Of a DNA stretch of 64,000 nt, positions 5,781 to 14,083 are shown one piece after another (position 1 is the first letter of the stretch; every line of letters starts with the position of its first letter). The stretch spans positions 2,171 to 66,170 of the forward strand of contig WRFY01000124.1 in assembly GCA_009783445.1 (NCBI GenBank), in the 5' to 3' direction. Source of the stretch: Candidatus Azobacteroides sp. (GTDB lineage: Bacteria > Bacteroidota > Bacteroidia > Bacteroidales > Azobacteroidaceae). The notes under the pieces are model-generated. The model saw nothing but the letters and a program-made list of their open reading frames with translations, made no database searches and was not told the DNA's origin. The translations under genes were made by a program, and so were the position numbers.

Positions 5781-6431
5781 TCACTTTTCTTCTTTTACAT
5801 TTCCTTCCGCATCCGCTGTAAAATTAAATTTAAGATAAGATATTTCTGTCCCAAGCCCTCCGGATTTAGCTGTCGTTCTTGATCCCTGACGACTTTCAAT
5901 GGTAAAAGAATGAATGATTTTCGACGGATCGGCGTTTACGATAATGTCATACGTTCTTATTCCGGAAAATTCATTTTCTGATTCTTCAACCATTTTTCCC
6001 GCTTTGTTGACATTAGAGGCAATTTTTGAAAAATCAATTTCACTTAATTTCAATACATCTTCGGGCTTAACCGTAGGAGTATCGGTATCATCATCCACGT
6101 ATTTTCCGAGAGTTGATCTTTCTTTTCCTTCGGAATTACTGCCCAAAGTAATGTATTTACATTTTACGGTATTCGAACCGGATTCGAAGTAATAGACTTG
6201 GGCTGATGTTACCGTTTTGGAAAAGTTGTCTCCTGTTCCCGCGGATCCGAGAGAGATTTCGATAATTTTGGCGTCGGAACCGACAAATTTCTCAATCTTT
6301 GAACGCAAATTGTCATCAATGTCTTTTTGGTTAGTAATATCAATTCCGAAAAGACCGCTGCATGAATGCTGTGTCAACGCTGTTGCAACTACAACAGACA
6401 ATAAAAGAATTGTACGCAAATGTTTCTTCAT
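5781..6431 (-). CDS. hypothetical lipoprotein, last gene before the terminator
   Basis: Signal peptide with a lipobox-like Cys (LTQHSCSG). No family recognised. Confidence 0.6.
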   Translation of the reverse strand: MKKHLRTILLLSVVVATALTQHSCSGLFGIDITNQKDIDDNLRSKIEKFVGSDAKIIEISLGSAGTGDNFSKTVTSAQVYYFESGSNTVKCKYITLGSNSEGKERSTLGKYVDDDTDTPTVKPEDVLKLSEIDFSKIASNVNKAGKMVEESENEFSGIRTYDIIVNADPSKIIHSFTIESRQGSRTTAKSGGLGTEISYLKFNFTADAEGNVKEEK

Positions 6432-6547: not shown

Positions 6548-7063
6548 TCATCGTTTCAACCATCCAAAAAGGACTTTTAGCAAACGCTCTTTTTTCAACA
6601 AAACAGTGGCGTTTCCCTGCATAGAAGGATAATAAGAAATGATTTTACCGCTGGATAAACGAAGATTGTCTTGCAAATTAACCTTAGCTATCAAATATTT
6701 ACACCCTTCTTTCCTGACAACGACAGAGTCTTTTTTTTCAATCCGACCGAAGAGCTGTCCGTATTTGTTTTTGTTGTAGCCTTCTATTTCAATCATAACA
6801 GATAACCCGAGTTCCATTTTTGACTGTAAGGCAATGGGAATTTCAATTATTGCGCCATAAGCAGAATTTTCCATGGGAACAATGTACGCAGTTGCTTGAA
6901 CAGTTTCGGTGTAGGGGAAGAAGTAACTTCCAATAATCAATAAAGTGAACACAACAAATAAAACAGTAATGCCGCTGCGTACTACCAATGGAGGCATTTT
7001 CCCTATGATCGACCGTACTTTCTCACTTCTTAATTCTATCGAATCCATATTTTCAATTTCCAA
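6548..7063 (-). CDS. short HlyD-family membrane-fusion-like protein lacking the coiled-coil hairpin
   Basis: The N-terminus (ELRSEKVRSIIGKMPPLVVRSGITVLFVV, one TM) is typical of bacteriocin-exporter HlyD partners in Bacteroidota. It is only 171 aa, and its start overlaps the ABC gene stop by 11 nt. Confidence 0.6.
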   Translation of the reverse strand: MEIENMDSIELRSEKVRSIIGKMPPLVVRSGITVLFVVFTLLIIGSYFFPYTETVQATAYIVPMENSAYGAIIEIPIALQSKMELGLSVMIEIEGYNKNKYGQLFGRIEKKDSVVVRKEGCKYLIAKVNLQDNLRLSSGKIISYYPSMQGNATVLLKKERLLKVLFGWLKR

Positions 7064-9293
7064 GTTCCAACTGATTCTTAACTAAATAATAATAAGCTCC
7101 TTTACTTTTTATTAATTCCTCATGAGTGCCGATCTCTATTATCTCTCCTTTGTCTAATACAACTATCTGATCGGCATTTTTTACCGTACTTAACCGGTGG
7201 GCCACTACCACTACTGTTCGTCCCTGATAAAATGCATTCAGATTTTCAATAATCATTTTTTCATTATTAGCATCCAAAGCATTAGTTGCCTCATCCAGAA
7301 AGATAAATTGAGGATTGCGATAGACGACCCGTGCAATCAGAATGCGTTGTTTTTGCCCATAGCTCAATCCCTGTCCTTCCTGACCAATAATGGTATTGTA
7401 TTTAAGGGGCAGTTTTTCAATATGATCTTTAATATTTGCAATCGTTACCGCATTTTGCAGTCGTTCTAAATCAATATCTTCATCGTTTACTGCCACATTG
7501 CGAGCGATGGATTCGGAAAAAATATAGCCATCCTGCATCACCACTCCACATTGCTTCCTCCACCAGTGAATATCGATGTCCTGCAAATTCTTATCCGCTA
7601 TGTTTATTTGCCCTTCGGTAGGCGGATAGTACCCTAAAAGCAGTTTAATAAGTGTTGTTTTTCCACTTCCGCTTGCCCCGACAATAGCAGTTACTTTTCC
7701 TTTAGGTAGAGTAAGATTAATGTTATTCAATGCTTTAGGAGAATAAGGTCCTTCATATTGAAAAGCGAGATTGCTTATATGAATATCTTCGCCCTGATAC
7801 AACTCCAAAGCGTCTTTCTCCGCATCTTCTTCATTTTTTTTGACATGTATCTCACTGATACGTTCCAAACTGATGCTTACATCCTGCCATTGGTAAACAA
7901 AGTTAACTAACTGTTCTACAGGACTATTCAATTGTCCGATAATATATTGTACCGAAAGCATCATCCCCAGTGTAAGTTGTCCGTGGATGACCGATGTAGC
8001 CGCCAGAATAGTGATGACAATATTTTTCAGTTCATTGATGGCCATAGCTCCTGCTTCCTGTGTCTGTTGTAACGAGAGCGTATCAAGATTGACTTTGAAC
8101 AAATCGGCCTGCACATCTTCCCATTCCCAACGTTTGCGTTGCTCGCACCCTTGCAGCTTAATCTCCTGCATCCCATTAATCAACTGGTATACCTTACTTC
8201 GATTTTTTCCCTCCTGTTCAAAAACTCGGTAATCGAGCATTCGCCTGTGCTTCAGGGAAAGGAGTATCCATACGGCATAAAGAACCGTGCCAATGAAAAA
8301 CACCAGAAAGATTCGCAAATCGTACAATAATAAAACAATGCCAAAGATTAGCAAACTGAAAAACGAAAAGAGGACATTGAGGCTTTGCGCTGTGAGGAAA
8401 CGCTCCACCCGGTTATGATCTTCGATGCGCTGAAGCAAATCGCCCAACAGTTTGGTATCGAAAAAGCTCATCGGGAGCTTCATCAACTTGATAAAGAAAT
8501 CGGAAATAAGTGAAATATTAATACGGGCGCTGATGTGCAGCAAGATACGACGCCGAATAAAATCAACTGCAGTATGTCCGAAGAGTAACATTAACTGTGC
8601 CAGCAAGATAAGATAGATAAAGCTGATATTTTGGTTGGCAATTCCCGTATCTACAATGGCCTGCGTAAGGAAAGGGAAAAAGAGCTGCAACAGACTACCC
8701 AACAATAACCCCAACAGAAGCTGTCCGAAAAGCTGACGATAAGGTAAGAAATAATTGCTCAAGAAGCGAAAACGATTACGAGTAATAATCTCTCCTTCCT
8801 GTCGATAAAAGGCTTCGGTAGGCTGTAATATCAATGCGACTCCTTTCTCTTCTCCACATGATCGCGTACTAATCCAATTATCACAAAACTCTTGCTCACT
8901 GTACTGCAACAAGCCTTTACCCGGATCGGCGACTTTAACTACATATTCTGCCATTGCAGACTTGACCCGTAATCTCCATTTCTTTTTGGAAATTTCATAT
9001 ACCACTACAAAGTGATTCTGCTGCCAATGAACGATGCAAGGCAGCGGAGCTTTTTCTGTTAATTGTGTAAAAGTAAATCTACCACCCACCGTTCGAAAAC
9101 CGATTTCTTCGGCTGCTTCGCTTATGCCAAGCATGGATACGCCTTCGCGGGAAAGATGCGATTTTTTCCGCAAACCTTCCAACGAATAGCGGCGACCATA
9201 ATAGGCCGCGACCATGCGCAGGCAGGTGGGTCCGCAATCCATGACATCGAGCTGGTGGAAAACAGGGAAGTTATTCATGGAAAAATTTCTCAT
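7053..9293 (-). CDS. peptidase C39 domain-containing ABC transporter (peptide cleavage/export permease-ATPase)
   Basis: N-terminal C39 motif QLDVMDCGPTCLRMV, a six-TM ABC membrane domain, Walker A GASGSGKTT, signature LSYGQKQR and Walker B FIFLDEATNALD. Confidence 0.9.
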   Translation of the reverse strand: MRNFSMNNFPVFHQLDVMDCGPTCLRMVAAYYGRRYSLEGLRKKSHLSREGVSMLGISEAAEEIGFRTVGGRFTFTQLTEKAPLPCIVHWQQNHFVVVYEISKKKWRLRVKSAMAEYVVKVADPGKGLLQYSEQEFCDNWISTRSCGEEKGVALILQPTEAFYRQEGEIITRNRFRFLSNYFLPYRQLFGQLLLGLLLGSLLQLFFPFLTQAIVDTGIANQNISFIYLILLAQLMLLFGHTAVDFIRRRILLHISARINISLISDFFIKLMKLPMSFFDTKLLGDLLQRIEDHNRVERFLTAQSLNVLFSFFSLLIFGIVLLLYDLRIFLVFFIGTVLYAVWILLSLKHRRMLDYRVFEQEGKNRSKVYQLINGMQEIKLQGCEQRKRWEWEDVQADLFKVNLDTLSLQQTQEAGAMAINELKNIVITILAATSVIHGQLTLGMMLSVQYIIGQLNSPVEQLVNFVYQWQDVSISLERISEIHVKKNEEDAEKDALELYQGEDIHISNLAFQYEGPYSPKALNNINLTLPKGKVTAIVGASGSGKTTLIKLLLGYYPPTEGQINIADKNLQDIDIHWWRKQCGVVMQDGYIFSESIARNVAVNDEDIDLERLQNAVTIANIKDHIEKLPLKYNTIIGQEGQGLSYGQKQRILIARVVYRNPQFIFLDEATNALDANNEKMIIENLNAFYQGRTVVVVAHRLSTVKNADQIVVLDKGEIIEIGTHEELIKSKGAYYYLVKNQLELGN

Positions 9294-9308
9294 ATTCTCA
9301 TTTTTGTT

Positions 9309-11666
9309 TCACAAACGATTTATATCGTCCAATGCCGCATTCGCTCCTCGGTATTGCTTCTTGTAATTATTGAACTGGTAACGAATGGTGAGAAGCAAAG
9401 CGCGTGTTTCGTATTTTGTCATTTTTGTATAGGAAACGGTATTGACTCGCACATCTATCCGATTATTTATCCAGTTGAATAAATCAGTTACTTGCAAATT
9501 AGCCAATAGTTTTTTATTGAAAAAATATTTTCGCAATCCGATCTCAATCGATTTCATCTCGTTCGTCTCTATTGCATAGTTATTCATTTTTCCTTGATAA
9601 TTCAGATTCAAGGAAAAAATATATTTTCGAGGAAGAACAAATTCATTATTGATGCTGCAAAAAAATACCGTTCGATTTCGGCTTTGCTCTTTCCCCAGAT
9701 AAGACAGATTGAAGAAAGGTTGGCTCACGCCGACTGTCACTTGCGTTTGACCGAATTTGTATGGAACATCGCCTGTTAAAAGGAAATCTAATTTTTGATA
9801 TTTCGGGTAATTGACGTAGGTCATAACTGTTTGGGACGAATTTTGTTCCGAATCTTCAATGGTAAATCCAATTGGATGATTTACGTAGGTATAATCCAAT
9901 CGAAAATCCAATATTCGATAATGCAGATGGTAATCGAATAGATACATATCTTCCGAATTGAGCAGGGGATTTCCTCTTTCCCGCAGGAAACGATTCACGT
10001 AGTAGTCTTCGCTACTGAGCAGAGAAAATGCAGGACGTTGAATCTTTCGTGCCATTTCCAATCCCATTTGCGTGTTTCCAACTATTTGAGAAATGGAAAG
10101 ACTCGGATAGAATCCGCTATAATTTCGATCTATTTCTACTTGGCGAGCGCTGTCGATAGTCGTTAAAGCCTTTGTCCATTCGTACCGCATCCCTATTTGA
10201 ATTGCCAGTTTACCGAATTGTCTACTATAATTTGCAAAACCAGCGACTTTATTTTCTTTATTTGTGTAAAAGTTGTCAGCTATATATTGTTCCGGATTTA
10301 ACAGAAAACCTGAACCTTTCACTTGATTACATTCTCCGCCAAATTCCAAGCTTGATAGTTCGTTCAAACGGTATTCCAAAGTAAATTTTCCTGCATATAG
10401 ATCGTAATTCGAACGACTGTTAAGCGTCAGTTCTCTGTTTTCTACTGATGAGGACTCCATTATTTCCTGTCCGGTTTTATTATGGGTTTTCAAGTAATCC
10501 ACATCCAAACGCAAACTAAACGATTTTCCATAATCTCCCTTATAAAAAGCGTTTAGCAGATGTTTTTCAGGCTGGCTTTTTGCCTTAAAAAGGGTCGTGA
10601 TTTGGTCGTAATTTTGAGCGTTAGCCCAAACGGTCTGAATTCCGGAAGAATTGATTTTTTCGTTTCCAAAAGTATACTGATATTGGCATCCAACAGCCTG
10701 CCGAGTCGTGACAGACCAATCGATTCCAGACGTAAAAACAGTTGATAAATCTTTATGTTTCTGAGGCATTTCCATTTTTTGCAACCAAGTTGTATCCGTA
10801 TAAACAACATAATCGGTTACTGTATTCCATCGCGTTTTTTCCCGAGTATGATTGCAGGAAGCAAAGAAAACAAAATTAGGGAGTGCATAGCTTAATTCGA
10901 AATCCTCCATGCTACTGAAATATTTCCGTTTCTCAACTTGCTGAGAGATTTGAACGCTCCAACCATCTTCCCCGCTTCGTTTGGTTTTGATCAGTAAAAC
11001 AGCTCGCCCTTCTGCATCGTATTTCGCACCCGGATTTGTAATTAACTCAATACTAATAATATTAGTTGAAGATAGACGATTAAGCTCGGTTTTATCGTAC
11101 AATTTTCGGTTGTTGATGTAAACAATCGGCGTTCCTTTGCCAAAAACAGTTATTTCATCTTCATTTATTGTAACGCCCGGAATTCGTTTGATAACATCGT
11201 TGGCATTGCCCACAGAGGCTAACAAAGAAGAATTGACATGAACTATCCAGTTGTTTCCTATTTTGGAAAAAACGGGTTTAGGCGTTGTTACTACAATTTC
11301 GCTCAACAAATAGTTATCTTCTGTCAGCATAATTTCGCCTAATTCGATCGACTGTTGTTGTATGATTGTTTGCAGGGTGATTGTCTGGTAACCCAAACAA
11401 GCAATTTGCACAAGGAGTTCGCCTTGCTGAACATTTTCAAACGAAAATTCACCAGTTTCTGAACAAACAGTTCCATTAATAAAAGAAGAATCTGCTGCAT
11501 GGAATAAAATTACATTGGCATATTCTATTGGGATTTGTTTTTCGTTTACAACTTTGCCCGAAAGAGTTTGCGCATGAATCGCCATTTTGTTTCCAATGAA
11601 TAATAACAGCAGAATTTGCAGAAAATAAAATTGTTGTTTGCATACGAAATGATTAGTCATTTGCAT
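9309..11666 (-). CDS. outer-membrane beta-barrel protein, TonB-dependent-receptor-like, with an N-terminal carboxypeptidase-regulatory-like domain
   Basis: Signal peptide, a CarboxypepD_reg-like beta-sandwich (LSGKVVNEKQIPIEYANVIL), a plug-like segment (IKRIPGVTINEDEITVFGKG) and a long beta-strand-rich C-terminus ending in an aromatic-rich region. Its start overlaps the rSAM gene stop by 14 nt. Confidence 0.75.
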   Translation of the reverse strand: MQMTNHFVCKQQFYFLQILLLLFIGNKMAIHAQTLSGKVVNEKQIPIEYANVILFHAADSSFINGTVCSETGEFSFENVQQGELLVQIACLGYQTITLQTIIQQQSIELGEIMLTEDNYLLSEIVVTTPKPVFSKIGNNWIVHVNSSLLASVGNANDVIKRIPGVTINEDEITVFGKGTPIVYINNRKLYDKTELNRLSSTNIISIELITNPGAKYDAEGRAVLLIKTKRSGEDGWSVQISQQVEKRKYFSSMEDFELSYALPNFVFFASCNHTREKTRWNTVTDYVVYTDTTWLQKMEMPQKHKDLSTVFTSGIDWSVTTRQAVGCQYQYTFGNEKINSSGIQTVWANAQNYDQITTLFKAKSQPEKHLLNAFYKGDYGKSFSLRLDVDYLKTHNKTGQEIMESSSVENRELTLNSRSNYDLYAGKFTLEYRLNELSSLEFGGECNQVKGSGFLLNPEQYIADNFYTNKENKVAGFANYSRQFGKLAIQIGMRYEWTKALTTIDSARQVEIDRNYSGFYPSLSISQIVGNTQMGLEMARKIQRPAFSLLSSEDYYVNRFLRERGNPLLNSEDMYLFDYHLHYRILDFRLDYTYVNHPIGFTIEDSEQNSSQTVMTYVNYPKYQKLDFLLTGDVPYKFGQTQVTVGVSQPFFNLSYLGKEQSRNRTVFFCSINNEFVLPRKYIFSLNLNYQGKMNNYAIETNEMKSIEIGLRKYFFNKKLLANLQVTDLFNWINNRIDVRVNTVSYTKMTKYETRALLLTIRYQFNNYKKQYRGANAALDDINRL

Positions 11667-12990
11667 AATTAAGTATGTGTGCTAATGATTTTTTTGAATC
11701 ATAGAATTTATCCATTATATGATAAATACTTTTTTCTATTTCATTACAAGGACATAATTTATTCAAATTAGTTAAATTTTTTGAGGAGAATAATCTATAG
11801 CTACAAATTCCATAGCAAACAGGAAGCAGGTTACAATCTAAACACTTCTTATTATCAAAAGTAGCTTTATTTAGTTTCCTATACAACAAGTGGTCGTTCC
11901 ATTCTATTGTTCCATCTTTTGTTAAAACGCCATCCTCTATTTCCTTTTCAAAATTGACTGCATGACATTTGAATACTCTACCATCATAATTAATTATAGA
12001 TTGATAATATTTGTCGGCCGGACAAGCCAATGTATTCGTATGAATTATGGAATGAGTTCTTATTTCAGTGTTGAATCCTGCATTCTCAAATATTAACAAC
12101 TTCTGTCCAATTTCATCAAAGGATACTCTTTCTTGATCTTGGTCTATTTGCTTAATTAATACCATTATTTTTTTTCGAATATGCAAAGGAAATGATTCGA
12201 TAATATTCGTAATGGAATCAAAATATTCCTTGGTAAAATTAATTCTAAGAATTAATGTTTTAGGATTCAAATTTTCAGCTAATAATATAATGCTATTAAC
12301 AATTCTGTCATATGAATCGGTTGTATTTTTTTGATATCGAATCCTATTATGTATTTCTTTAGGCCCATTCAAAGTTATTTGAATGGATTGCATATTAATA
12401 TCTCTAAACAATGGCAACATTTTTTCATTTAAAAAATATCCGTTTGTTGTGATTTGAGATTCGAGAAATACATTGTTTAAGTCACAAAATTCTTTTGTTT
12501 TTTCGGAAATTGGTTTTAATATATTTTCATAACATAATAACGGTTCTCCTCCATACCAATTTAAGAAAAATGCAGATTTATTTTTTACTGTATTATTTAT
12601 GAATTTGATTGTTGCATTAACAGTTTCTTTATTCATTATGCCTTTACACCTATCTTCATAACAATACCAACAATTAAAATTGCAATTTAATGTAGGAAGA
12701 ATCATAAGCCAATATGAATCATTATTAAAAACTTCTTTCCGATTATGAAAAAGTAAAATATTTTTTATATTATTGTCAATTTCTATATCATTAATTATTC
12801 CTAATTTATGCATTGTGCTAAAAAAAACAGGTTCATCTGTTTTCGTCTTATTTAAGTTTTCTTTGTAAGATATTAGTTTATTGTACTTGTTATCTTCTAT
12901 CTTGAATAACATTTTCTTAAACAAATTAACCCCGACCACTATGCTATTATAGCTTTTAAAGTAATTATATTTACTTAATATATATCCCAT
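11653..12990 (-). CDS. radical SAM / SPASM-domain peptide maturase
   Basis: CX3CX2C cluster LNCNFNCWYC (encoded at about 12661-12690). C-terminal SPASM motifs C-x13-G-x4-C (CPADKYYQSIINYDGRVFKC) and CX2CX5CX3C (CLDCNLLPVCYGIC). ATG at 12990 is preferred over the track's TTG at 12996. Confidence 0.88.
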   Translation of the reverse strand: MGYILSKYNYFKSYNSIVVGVNLFKKMLFKIEDNKYNKLISYKENLNKTKTDEPVFFSTMHKLGIINDIEIDNNIKNILLFHNRKEVFNNDSYWLMILPTLNCNFNCWYCYEDRCKGIMNKETVNATIKFINNTVKNKSAFFLNWYGGEPLLCYENILKPISEKTKEFCDLNNVFLESQITTNGYFLNEKMLPLFRDINMQSIQITLNGPKEIHNRIRYQKNTTDSYDRIVNSIILLAENLNPKTLILRINFTKEYFDSITNIIESFPLHIRKKIMVLIKQIDQDQERVSFDEIGQKLLIFENAGFNTEIRTHSIIHTNTLACPADKYYQSIINYDGRVFKCHAVNFEKEIEDGVLTKDGTIEWNDHLLYRKLNKATFDNKKCLDCNLLPVCYGICSYRLFSSKNLTNLNKLCPCNEIEKSIYHIMDKFYDSKKSLAHILNYAND

Positions 12991-13007
12991 CTTCAACTTT
13001 TTATATT

Positions 13008-13098
13008 AGGAGCTGCTTCTAAATAAATCATCTATAATTTAATTTCATTTTAAAAGAAAATGAACTATATTTTATAAGATTAATTTCTGGCAGCTCCT
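13008..13098 (-). promoter_or_regulatory. extended imperfect stem-loop between the precursor gene and the maturase gene
   Basis: GC-rich 9-bp basal stem (AGGAGCTGC 13008-13016 / GCAGCTCCT 13090-13098). A roughly 14-bp AT-rich middle stem follows, then an apical 8-bp stem TTCATTTT/AAAATGAA. No U-run follows on the minus strand. Confidence 0.45.
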
Positions 13099-13211
13099 TA
13101 GTTATAAGATATTATACCTACTCATTTACAAAATGATACTTTAACATGATTTATCATTCTGAATCTAAATAAGTTTTAGAATATGAAATCATAATTGATC
13201 ATCAATCAGCA

Positions 13212-13382
13212 TTAACAATAAGTGCCTGATTTTGAACCACAATAGACTCCTGATTTACCGACAGCAGAATCATTAATCAATAAGGCAGACGCATCAACTC
13301 CTCCTATAAGTTGTTTTTTTTCTTCCTTTGTCAATACAATTTTCTTACAATTTTTCAAATTATTTATTTTATTTGTTTTCAT
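13212..13382 (-). CDS. RiPP/bacteriocin precursor peptide with a double-glycine leader (56 aa); not in the ORF track
   Basis: Hand translation of the minus strand gives MKTNKINNLKNCKKIVLTKEEKKQLIGG|VDASALLINDSAVGKSGVYCGSKSGTYC*. The leader is Lys-rich and ends in LIGG. It lies directly upstream of the rSAM/SPASM and C39-ABC genes. Confidence 0.8.
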   Translation of the reverse strand: MKTNKINNLKNCKKIVLTKEEKKQLIGGVDASALLINDSAVGKSGVYCGSKSGTYC

Positions 13383-13762
13383 TTCTCGATAAATTTTTAT
13401 GTTAATAATAATTTTATTGGCGAAACTTTCGCATTCATCGCGTCCAACAAGTTACCCAACCTTGTTGGGAACTTTGGAAAATCAATAATATTTCGTACCT
13501 TTACGGCGCCTTCTTGTGATTTTGCATTTATTATTTCGATTGTTATGTTGAATATAAACCTCGCAGGGAGGCTATTTTTGTTTGCAAATTAAGGGGGCGA
13601 GCCTTGCTTTGCCATAAACGACAAATTCGTTCGTTTACATTTGCAAAAATAGAAATAAAAAATGGAACAAAATCCAAATGTTTGAAATAGTTTGTGAGCG
13701 TACCGATTTCGTCCATCAGCGTAGCATTTTTATCCTGCCAATGTCATAATATGAATGATAAA

Positions 13763-14083
13763 TTATTTTTGGTTGAACAATAATTTCAATTTCTGCGTGT
13801 TCCTGACCGAAAAACAGAAAACTTTGTCTCCGGATAGTTTAACCTCTTTTCTCTTAAGATCAATGGACTTTATGTGATGCGTATTAATAATACATTGCCG
13901 GCTTATTTGGATAAAACAGTCCGGTAATTCCGAAAGTATTTTCCGTAATGATTTTACACAATGGAAAGAAGGTTCGTTTTCCATATAAAATGTACATAAG
14001 TAATCATTAACCTCAACAGCCAATAGCGACTCCATTTGAATAACACGTAATTCATTTCCATTTTTTACAGTGAAACAATTCAT
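13763..14083 (-). CDS. stand-alone LytTR-domain DNA-binding protein with no receiver domain
   Basis: 106 aa. The pattern (...LLAVEVNDYLCTFYM...KSLRKILSELP..FIQISRQCIINTHHIKSID...V.LSGDKVF.FS) matches LytTR domain spacing. Confidence 0.75.
   Translation of the reverse strand: MNCFTVKNGNELRVIQMESLLAVEVNDYLCTFYMENEPSFHCVKSLRKILSELPDCFIQISRQCIINTHHIKSIDLKRKEVKLSGDKVFCFSVRNTQKLKLLFNQK

Follow-up and report, generated by a model that had tools for sequence, protein, structure and literature searches.

A hairpin-less HlyD-type adaptor family and an Oar-type barrel linked to a peptidase-containing ABC exporter in Bacteroidales: a possible route of peptide export

The operon and its short adaptor

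The DNA examined here is a 64,000-nt stretch (the window; positions 2,171-66,170 of contig WRFY01000124.1, assembly GCA_009783445.1) of Candidatus Azobacteroides sp., whose genome is assembled in 125 contigs, so that an isolated frameshift may be an artefact of assembly. The window carries on its minus strand, in order, the genes for a LytTR protein, a precursor peptide, a radical SAM (rSAM)/SPASM peptide maturase, an outer-membrane barrel resembling TonB-dependent transporters (TBDTs), a C39 peptidase-containing ABC transporter (PCAT) and a short HlyD-like protein, mini-HlyD, which we term the mini-adaptor. The 785-aa barrel (9309..11666, minus strand, as are all genes of the window described below) lies between the maturase (11653..12996) and the exporter (7053..9293), as reported in a first-pass annotation of this DNA, which also placed overlapping stop and start codons around the barrel gene. 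Direct reading of the sequence shows a 14-nt overlap between the rSAM stop and the barrel start, while a 15-nt spacer separates the barrel and ABC genes, and the overlap therefore holds on one side only. The ABC stop is followed after 4 nt by the ATG of the mini-adaptor (6548..7048). The HlyD-like open reading frame (ORF) had been called at 6548-7063 with 171 aa. Homologues all begin MDSIELRSEK, and consequently we place the start at the ATG at 7048, giving a protein that is indeed short but has 166 aa. The exporter consists of a C39 peptidase, an ABC membrane domain and an ATPase (Pfam PF03412, E 1.5e-29; PF00664, 8.3e-29; PF00005, 9.1e-34). Its best NCBIfam match, NHLM_micro_ABC1, is under that model's cut-off, and PCATs of related loci share 52-85% identity with it.

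The mini-adaptor was modelled with AlphaFold2 (AF2; pLDDT 77). The model has helices at residues 4-16 and 20-43, namely an amphipathic N-terminal cytoplasmic helix and a transmembrane (TM) helix at about 20-43, followed by a single beta-barrel domain and a short C-terminal helix. An N-terminal cytoplasmic segment, a single TM helix and a beta-barrel domain of the membrane fusion protein (MFP) type are features of HlyD/MFP adaptors. No lipoyl (barrel-sandwich) domain is present in the 166-aa model, nor is there a long helical pair that could form a coiled-coil alpha-hairpin. The only family match of the protein is weak (E 1.5e-4) and covers positions 322-409 of the 422 in TIGR01843, which is the C-terminal beta-barrel part. 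Model and match agree with the earlier description of the protein as an N-terminal TM segment plus a short beta-domain without a coiled coil. Foldseek matched it to the beta-barrel domains of MacA, EmrA and ZneB (probability 1.00) and BesA, and to the HlyD chain of the HlyB/D complex (7sgr_C, TM-score 0.52; the entry models 166 residues of the chain).

A 437-aa HlyD from the same genome, which matches HlyD_3 and adjoins a paralogous PCAT, was used for comparison. By BLASTP, residues 2-50 of the mini-adaptor align with residues 10-58 of this protein (47% identical) and residues 32-150 with residues 303-414, while the stretch from about 60 to 300 has no counterpart. Since the mini-adaptor aligns to both ends of the longer protein, it corresponds to a full-length Bacteroidales bacteriocin-type HlyD whose middle, with the lipoyl domain and the coiled-coil hairpin, has been deleted.

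Besides the window protein, a protein search returned 38 relatives of 133-180 aa (most 149-180) and 31-77% identity, and an HMMER scan of 1.84 billion cluster representatives yielded 2210 matching proteins at E <=1e-10. Over 100 of the best 150 HMMER matches are single-stretch proteins of 147-195 aa, with smaller length classes at about 240, 284-379 and about 435 aa. The family comprises more than 100 clusters at 50% identity. None of 22 members reached a Pfam gathering threshold, and their HlyD-type Pfam matches were sub-threshold singles (HlyD_3, E 0.018; HlyD_D23, E 0.036). Longer or fused relatives were not found by the search, which is weak evidence. Adaptors of intermediate length include five of 238-245 aa (P0068, P0078, P0079, P0101, P0107) and four of 284-379 aa (P0090, P0095, P0109, P0122). 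A barrel-linked adaptor of 239 aa (L132:5237-5953) keeps a lipoyl remnant and has no hairpin. Such intermediate lengths suggest that internal deletion was stepwise or repeated.

The possibility, raised in the first-pass annotation, that the short protein is a fragment of a frameshifted HlyD gene did not hold. The family is conserved and its length stays constant as identity falls from 100% to about 27%; the 216-aa ORF downstream (5781-6431) encodes an unrelated lipoprotein-like protein with a signal peptide and a Cys at about residue 24. This ORF matched nothing in Pfam or NCBIfam, has no homologue among 80 related loci, and is probably outside the module.

The operon resembles the CvaB/CvaA/TolC and HlyB-HlyD-TolC systems in its C39-peptidase ABC exporter, which would cleave a GG leader, and in having the adaptor gene directly 3' of the exporter gene. 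It differs from them in lacking a linked TolC gene and in having a TonB-dependent-type barrel in the operon. The mini-adaptor has the N-terminal cytoplasmic and TM helices and the beta-barrel domain in common with CvaA and HlyD, but not the lipoyl and alpha-hairpin domains of about 270 residues. A closer comparison is offered by BesA of Borrelia burgdorferi, a hairpin-less periplasmic adaptor that keeps the lipoyl, beta-barrel and membrane-proximal domains (PMC3807786), and which was among our Foldseek matches (4kkt, 4kku). Both are natural MFPs without an alpha-hairpin. BesA, however, partners a resistance-nodulation-division pump whose large periplasmic domain can reach the TolC-like BesC (PMC3807786), whereas the mini-adaptor retains one beta-barrel domain and is paired with an ABC exporter that lacks a periplasmic domain.

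The barrel and the conserved module

The barrel matches PF14905 (OMP_b-brl_3, E 2.4e-44), TonB_dep_Rec_b-barrel (PF00593, 1.8e-6) and CarbopepD_reg_2/CarboxypepD_reg (PF13715 and PF13620, about 1e-10). A signal peptide is followed by a CarboxypepD_reg extension (residues 34-113), a predicted TonB box (LSEIVV, 121-126), a plug (about 130-230), the barrel proper (about 235-764) and a short C-terminal tail. The AF2 model (pLDDT 86, pTM 0.76) shows an Ig-like N-terminal extension, a low-confidence linker that contains the TonB box, a plug and a large barrel of the TBDT type, which canonically has 22 strands. With Foldseek the model matched PfeA, PirA, Cir, FecA and BtuB (E 1e-15 to 1e-18), with TM-scores of 0.5-0.68 to the first four (E about 1e-18). 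The CarboxypepD_reg domain and plug-like segment described in the first-pass annotation were thus recovered, and the TonB box, for which it had proposed to look, was found. The motif L121-x-E123-[VI]-V-V is conserved among 39 PCAT-linked homologues, of which 38 have the L, 34 the E and 30 the V, and the classic plug motifs are kept too. By predicted fold and domains, the protein is a complete Oar-type TonB-dependent transporter.

An even sample of 401 genomes of the order was scanned with the barrel profile. The profile matched strongly in 359 of the 401, and many matches are proteins of about 830 aa away from any PCAT. This stand-alone form looks like a near-universal Bacteroidales paralogue; two candidates per genome were taken, mostly stand-alone paralogues, and the scan is consequently not an inventory.

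A scan of species-representative genomes gave 375 relatives of the adaptor. In the best 80 of these 375 loci the order rSAM-barrel-PCAT-mini-adaptor recurs wherever the DNA suffices. Module loci come from Prevotella, Segatella, Hoylesella, Bacteroides, Phocaeicola, Marinifilum, Labilibaculum, Microbacter and Paludibacter, and the cultured carriers include Bacteroides pyogenes, B. fluxus, B. oleiciplenus, Phocaeicola massiliensis and many Prevotella species. The synteny of the barrel with rSAM and ABC genes, on which the first-pass annotation had made its reading depend, is therefore kept in dozens of genomes. When all ORFs of 56 non-redundant loci were clustered, four families alone were recurrent: the ABC family (56/56 loci), the mini-adaptor family (55/56), the barrel family (43/56 by BLAST, more by hidden Markov model) and the rSAM family (33/56). 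TolC, TonB/ExbBD, SusD-like and LytTR proteins did not recur among the 56, nor did a periplasmic binding protein or an inner-membrane importer. The barrel-PCAT-mini-adaptor trio is retained beside differing or undetected maturases. The module was also seen on short contigs of two metagenomic bins, a Chromatiaceae bacterium (L006) and a Veillonella sp. (L061), with PCATs 79% and 59% identical to that of the window; binning contamination is more likely here than gene transfer.

The TolC family (PF02321) is absent from the window's contig and from more than 100 related loci. Elsewhere in the genome, on other contigs, there are 28 PF02321 domain matches, which correspond to about 13 TolC genes with two domains each. 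The operon thus has no TolC-family gene, in agreement with the first-pass annotation, and the PCAT system may still use a TolC in trans. The genome also contains 4-5 TonB (TonB_C) genes.

The maturase matches PF04055, and several NCBIfam models of rSAM/SPASM maturases of peptides that are ribosomally synthesized and then post-translationally modified (RiPPs) match it far under their cut-offs. The precursor (13212..13382, 56 aa), read from the sequence, has a leader that is rich in Lys and ends in LIGG, followed by a 28-aa core containing two Cys; it matches TIGR04149, the GG-leader precursor model of rSAM-modified RiPP systems in Bacteroidales, weakly (E 0.0018, 18.2 bits, cut-off 25) and is presumed to be the cargo of the exporter. 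The LytTR protein (13763..14083, 106 aa; PF04397, 2.1e-12) is a stand-alone DNA-binding protein without a homologue in the 80 related loci. We regard it as a candidate local regulator outside the conserved module, and the autoinduction link to LytTR that had been proposed finds no support. The G+C content is 0.26-0.33 across the maturase, precursor and LytTR part (window 11001-14000) and 0.38-0.43 across the 3' half of the barrel gene, the ABC gene and the adaptor. The low value at the maturase end fits with that end being exchangeable.

A proposed export route and its rivals

In every characterised type I secretion or PCAT system known to us, the alpha-hairpin and lipoyl domains dock TolC, and PCATs have no periplasmic domain of their own. 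Since the adaptor here is without TolC-docking domains and the PCAT without a periplasmic domain, a peptide of roughly 3 kDa would need another route across the outer membrane. From the observed domain anatomy, gene linkage, conservation and barrel/mini-adaptor association we infer, with confidence a little short of even, that the barrel, PCAT and mini-adaptor form a TolC-independent two-step export route for a GG-leader, rSAM-modified peptide; outward transport through the barrel, periplasmic release and TonB dependence are all part of this inference. The PCAT would cut the leader after LIGG and pump the peptide across the inner membrane. The mini-adaptor, which has kept only the HlyD parts in contact with the ABC protein (cytoplasmic helix, TM helix and membrane-near beta-barrel domain), would form a short collar round the PCAT exit, unable to reach or open TolC. 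The peptide would consequently be let go into the periplasm, which is the simplest reading because a hairpin-less adaptor reaches TolC by no known mode. The barrel, made from the same transcript and drawing energy through its TonB box from one of the TonB systems of the cell, would then pass the peptide across the outer membrane. More tentatively, Bacteroidales may have evolved TolC-free peptide secretion in this way, with the PCAT and a vestigial one-domain adaptor passing the peptide to the periplasm and a product-specific TBDT then running 'in reverse' as exporter at the outer membrane.

There is a precedent for such a role. Oar is a TBDT required for secretion of PopC in Myxococcus xanthus, and the one TBDT shown in that work to act in secretion from the periplasm (PMC6434023). 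The barrel shares with Oar the CarboxypepD_reg extension, TonB box, plug and TBDT-type barrel, the last with 22 predicted strands in Oar (PMC6434023). Oar differs in matching PF07715 (Plug), in having a protease of about 50 kDa as cargo and in having no linked ABC exporter; the barrel here is of the PF14905 type, is operon-linked to a PCAT and would export a small modified peptide. The barrel is the only outer-membrane component of the module and has the architecture of Oar, which supports two-step, TonB-energised export. The 4-5 TonB genes of the genome, the retention of the three-gene set beside differing maturases and an earlier prediction that pfam14905 proteins export RiPPs in Bacteroidetes (PMC8939145) likewise speak for it, as does the tie between barrel presence and adaptor reduction described next.

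We also compared adaptor types across the 401-genome sample, full-length adaptors being recognised as matches in two pieces within frames of about 440 aa. The mini form was present in about 24 genomes and the full-length form in more than 100. A barrel was located upstream of the PCAT in 15 of 17 evaluable mini-adaptor loci, as against 2 of 20 full-length-HlyD loci (Fisher p 1.7e-6, a value that ignores relatedness and overstates the evidence). Transporters linked to full-length HlyD form essentially one clade on the PCAT tree. Barrel-linked loci have adaptors of 153 to 437 aa, among them one of 239 aa, and one such locus is without any; this graded series fits relaxed selection on the periplasm-spanning part. 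A mini-adaptor without an adjacent barrel is found at L145 and perhaps at L071 and L151. At L126 (4056-9453) rSAM, barrel and PCAT are followed by an MscS-type mechanosensitive channel gene and there is no adaptor.

Several observations weigh against the two-step export route. On the ABC tree the type of adaptor has to change a minimum of 4 times and the presence of a barrel a minimum of 6, with only 2-3 independent contrasts usable; because so few changes are needed, the association of barrel and mini-adaptor is largely phylogenetic. The two do co-vary in the counts, with few independent events behind it; the first-pass annotation had proposed to look for co-variation across homologous loci. 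On the barrel tree (this and the other trees were built with FastTree and midpoint-rooted) PCAT-linked and stand-alone barrels interleave. In a mirror-tree test of pairwise distances across 27 loci holding all four genes, the barrel was uncorrelated with the ABC protein (Spearman rho 0.12) and the adaptor (0.03), a result limited by barrel and rSAM distances near saturation. The barrel has every hallmark of an importer, from the conserved TonB box and plug to the TBDT fold, and we know of no TBDT shown to export a small peptide, in a literature that was not systematically searched. Lastly, the barrel accompanies full-length HlyD at L098, L104 and on contig C115 of the same genome. In two of these three cases (C115 and L098) neighbouring genes look broken, the ABC gene of L098 being split.

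The C115 cluster (L097; contig positions 1-7046) consists of an rSAM remnant, a barrel, a PCAT and the full-length 437-aa HlyD, with the barrel 46% and the PCAT 60% identical to those of the window. Its rSAM gene is frameshifted and has lost the N-terminal ~100 residues (multiple stops upstream), and its barrel gene is frameshifted about 40 residues before the end, while the ABC and HlyD genes are intact. Unless assembly errors are the cause, it looks like a decaying rSAM-barrel cassette beside a working exporter. The first-pass annotation had set the barrel 'in place' of TolC and a full-length adaptor. The barrel is indeed there, but the wording overstates the case, as the barrel does not co-evolve with the adaptor and occurs with full-length HlyD or with no adaptor at all.

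Another explanation is a one-step channel, in which a ring of mini-adaptors would dock on the periplasmic CarboxypepD_reg/plug face of the barrel as a TolC-less tripartite machine. In its favour, the genes sit side by side in tight linkage at many loci, and the periplasmic N-terminal extension of the barrel could be a docking site. However, there is no barrel/adaptor co-evolution, and in the models the beta-barrel domain and the Ig-like domain of roughly 90 aa would be far too short for a normal periplasm; for these two reasons we consider such a machine very improbable. The adaptor-less locus with barrel and PCAT (L126) also speaks against it, as does the lack of fused forms, which is weak evidence.

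The few independent events behind the association would also suit an explanation in which the barrel rides along as unrelated cargo or acts in producer immunity or as a decoy, the linkage being due to a shared mobile cassette and the peptide leaving by vesicles or lysis. Close barrel homologues are common as stand-alone genes. Nevertheless, the genes stay in the same order even as the barrel diverges to about 20% identity, its TonB box and plug motifs intact, which argues for selection for function within the operon. The barrel also lies inside the operon, its start overlapping the maturase stop. We therefore regard this explanation as improbable, and for the immunity-related decoy suggested in the first-pass annotation we found nothing in support.

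The mirror-tree test gave a strong correlation for one pair, ABC with adaptor (rho 0.81); for barrel with rSAM it was 0.18. The mean p-distance was lowest for ABC (0.35), followed by the adaptor (0.61) and rSAM (0.74), and highest for the barrel (0.81). Judged from these sequence distances, ABC and adaptor form a slowly evolving constant unit, and barrel and maturase the fast-evolving, exchangeable parts. The window barrel is the sister of the C115 barrel, and the window rSAM is likewise most similar to the rSAM of that cluster, although the two PCATs fall in different clades, which suggests joint movement of rSAM and barrel as a cassette.

Such a pattern, with the barrel diverging like the maturase and uncoupled from the ABC/adaptor pair, would be expected of a product-specific receptor. 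The barrel would then be the cognate TonB-dependent importer of the mature peptide, the PCAT exporting it together with another outer-membrane route. Receptors for siderophores and methanobactins are encoded inside their biosynthetic clusters. The canonical importer architecture with its conserved TonB box and plug favours this reading, as do the closest similarity of barrel and rSAM being to those of the C115 cluster and several loci with tandem multi-barrel arrays. Tandem arrays of two or three barrels were seen at L142:3-6431, L076:1-7775 and L125:8001-19085; some lie upstream of one PCAT, and another is stand-alone with ORFs of 160-208 aa between the barrels. A receptor does not, however, explain how a peptide of roughly 3 kDa leaves through the outer membrane just where the TolC-docking hairpin is lost, nor why adaptor reduction accompanies the presence of a barrel. 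The loci have no recurrent periplasmic binding protein or inner-membrane importer, and the LytTR gene is not conserved. We consider the receptor, which is the conventional reading of a TBDT gene in a biosynthetic cluster, the main rival, though an unlikely one; the peptide would in that case be a public good, a metallophore or a signal. Re-import or sensing, as suggested earlier, thus survives as uptake by a receptor, without the LytTR autoinduction link. The unconventional exit route remains a candidate and is the best supported of the three roles that had been proposed.

Relation to published clusters

Bacteroidales RiPP clusters with a PCAT and an outer-membrane protein have been described (BGC6-9), for which 'no MFP identified' was noted and it was asked whether a distinct transport mechanism operates or an MFP is still to be detected (PMC10352776). 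Outer-membrane proteins of pfam14905 are also listed in graspetide loci of Bacteroidetes, with a predicted role in export (PMC8939145). The locus studied here is a cluster of that kind from the same taxonomic order, with the same outer-membrane family, and the short adaptor went undetected in those clusters (PMC10352776, PMC8939145). The mini-adaptor family is probably the MFP missing from them. The surveys missed it, and Pfam gives the mini-adaptor no match. Co-location of barrel and PCAT is already known, and export by that outer-membrane protein has already been suggested (PMC10352776, PMC8939145). What is new here is that the mini-adaptor is defined as a family, traced to full-length HlyD through an internal deletion and associated with the barrel, and that the barrel proves evolutionarily uncoupled from the ABC/adaptor pair. 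Literature searches on bacteroidetocins with HlyD and on lanthipeptides with TonB returned nothing specific.

The missing adaptor is thus probably this large, unannotated, hairpin-less family, which would fill a gap in the annotation of these clusters. The question of how the peptides exit becomes testable, since the adaptor family travels with an Oar-type barrel and cultured carriers exist. If the barrel is a receptor, the peptides are shared goods or signals and not plain toxins. If it is the exit, a second export role would be documented for TonB-dependent transporters, and heterologous production of Bacteroidales RiPPs would need the barrel gene. A TBDT working in reverse would be, to our knowledge, the first shown to export a small natural product, and export of this kind would be a general route of RiPP release in the phylum.

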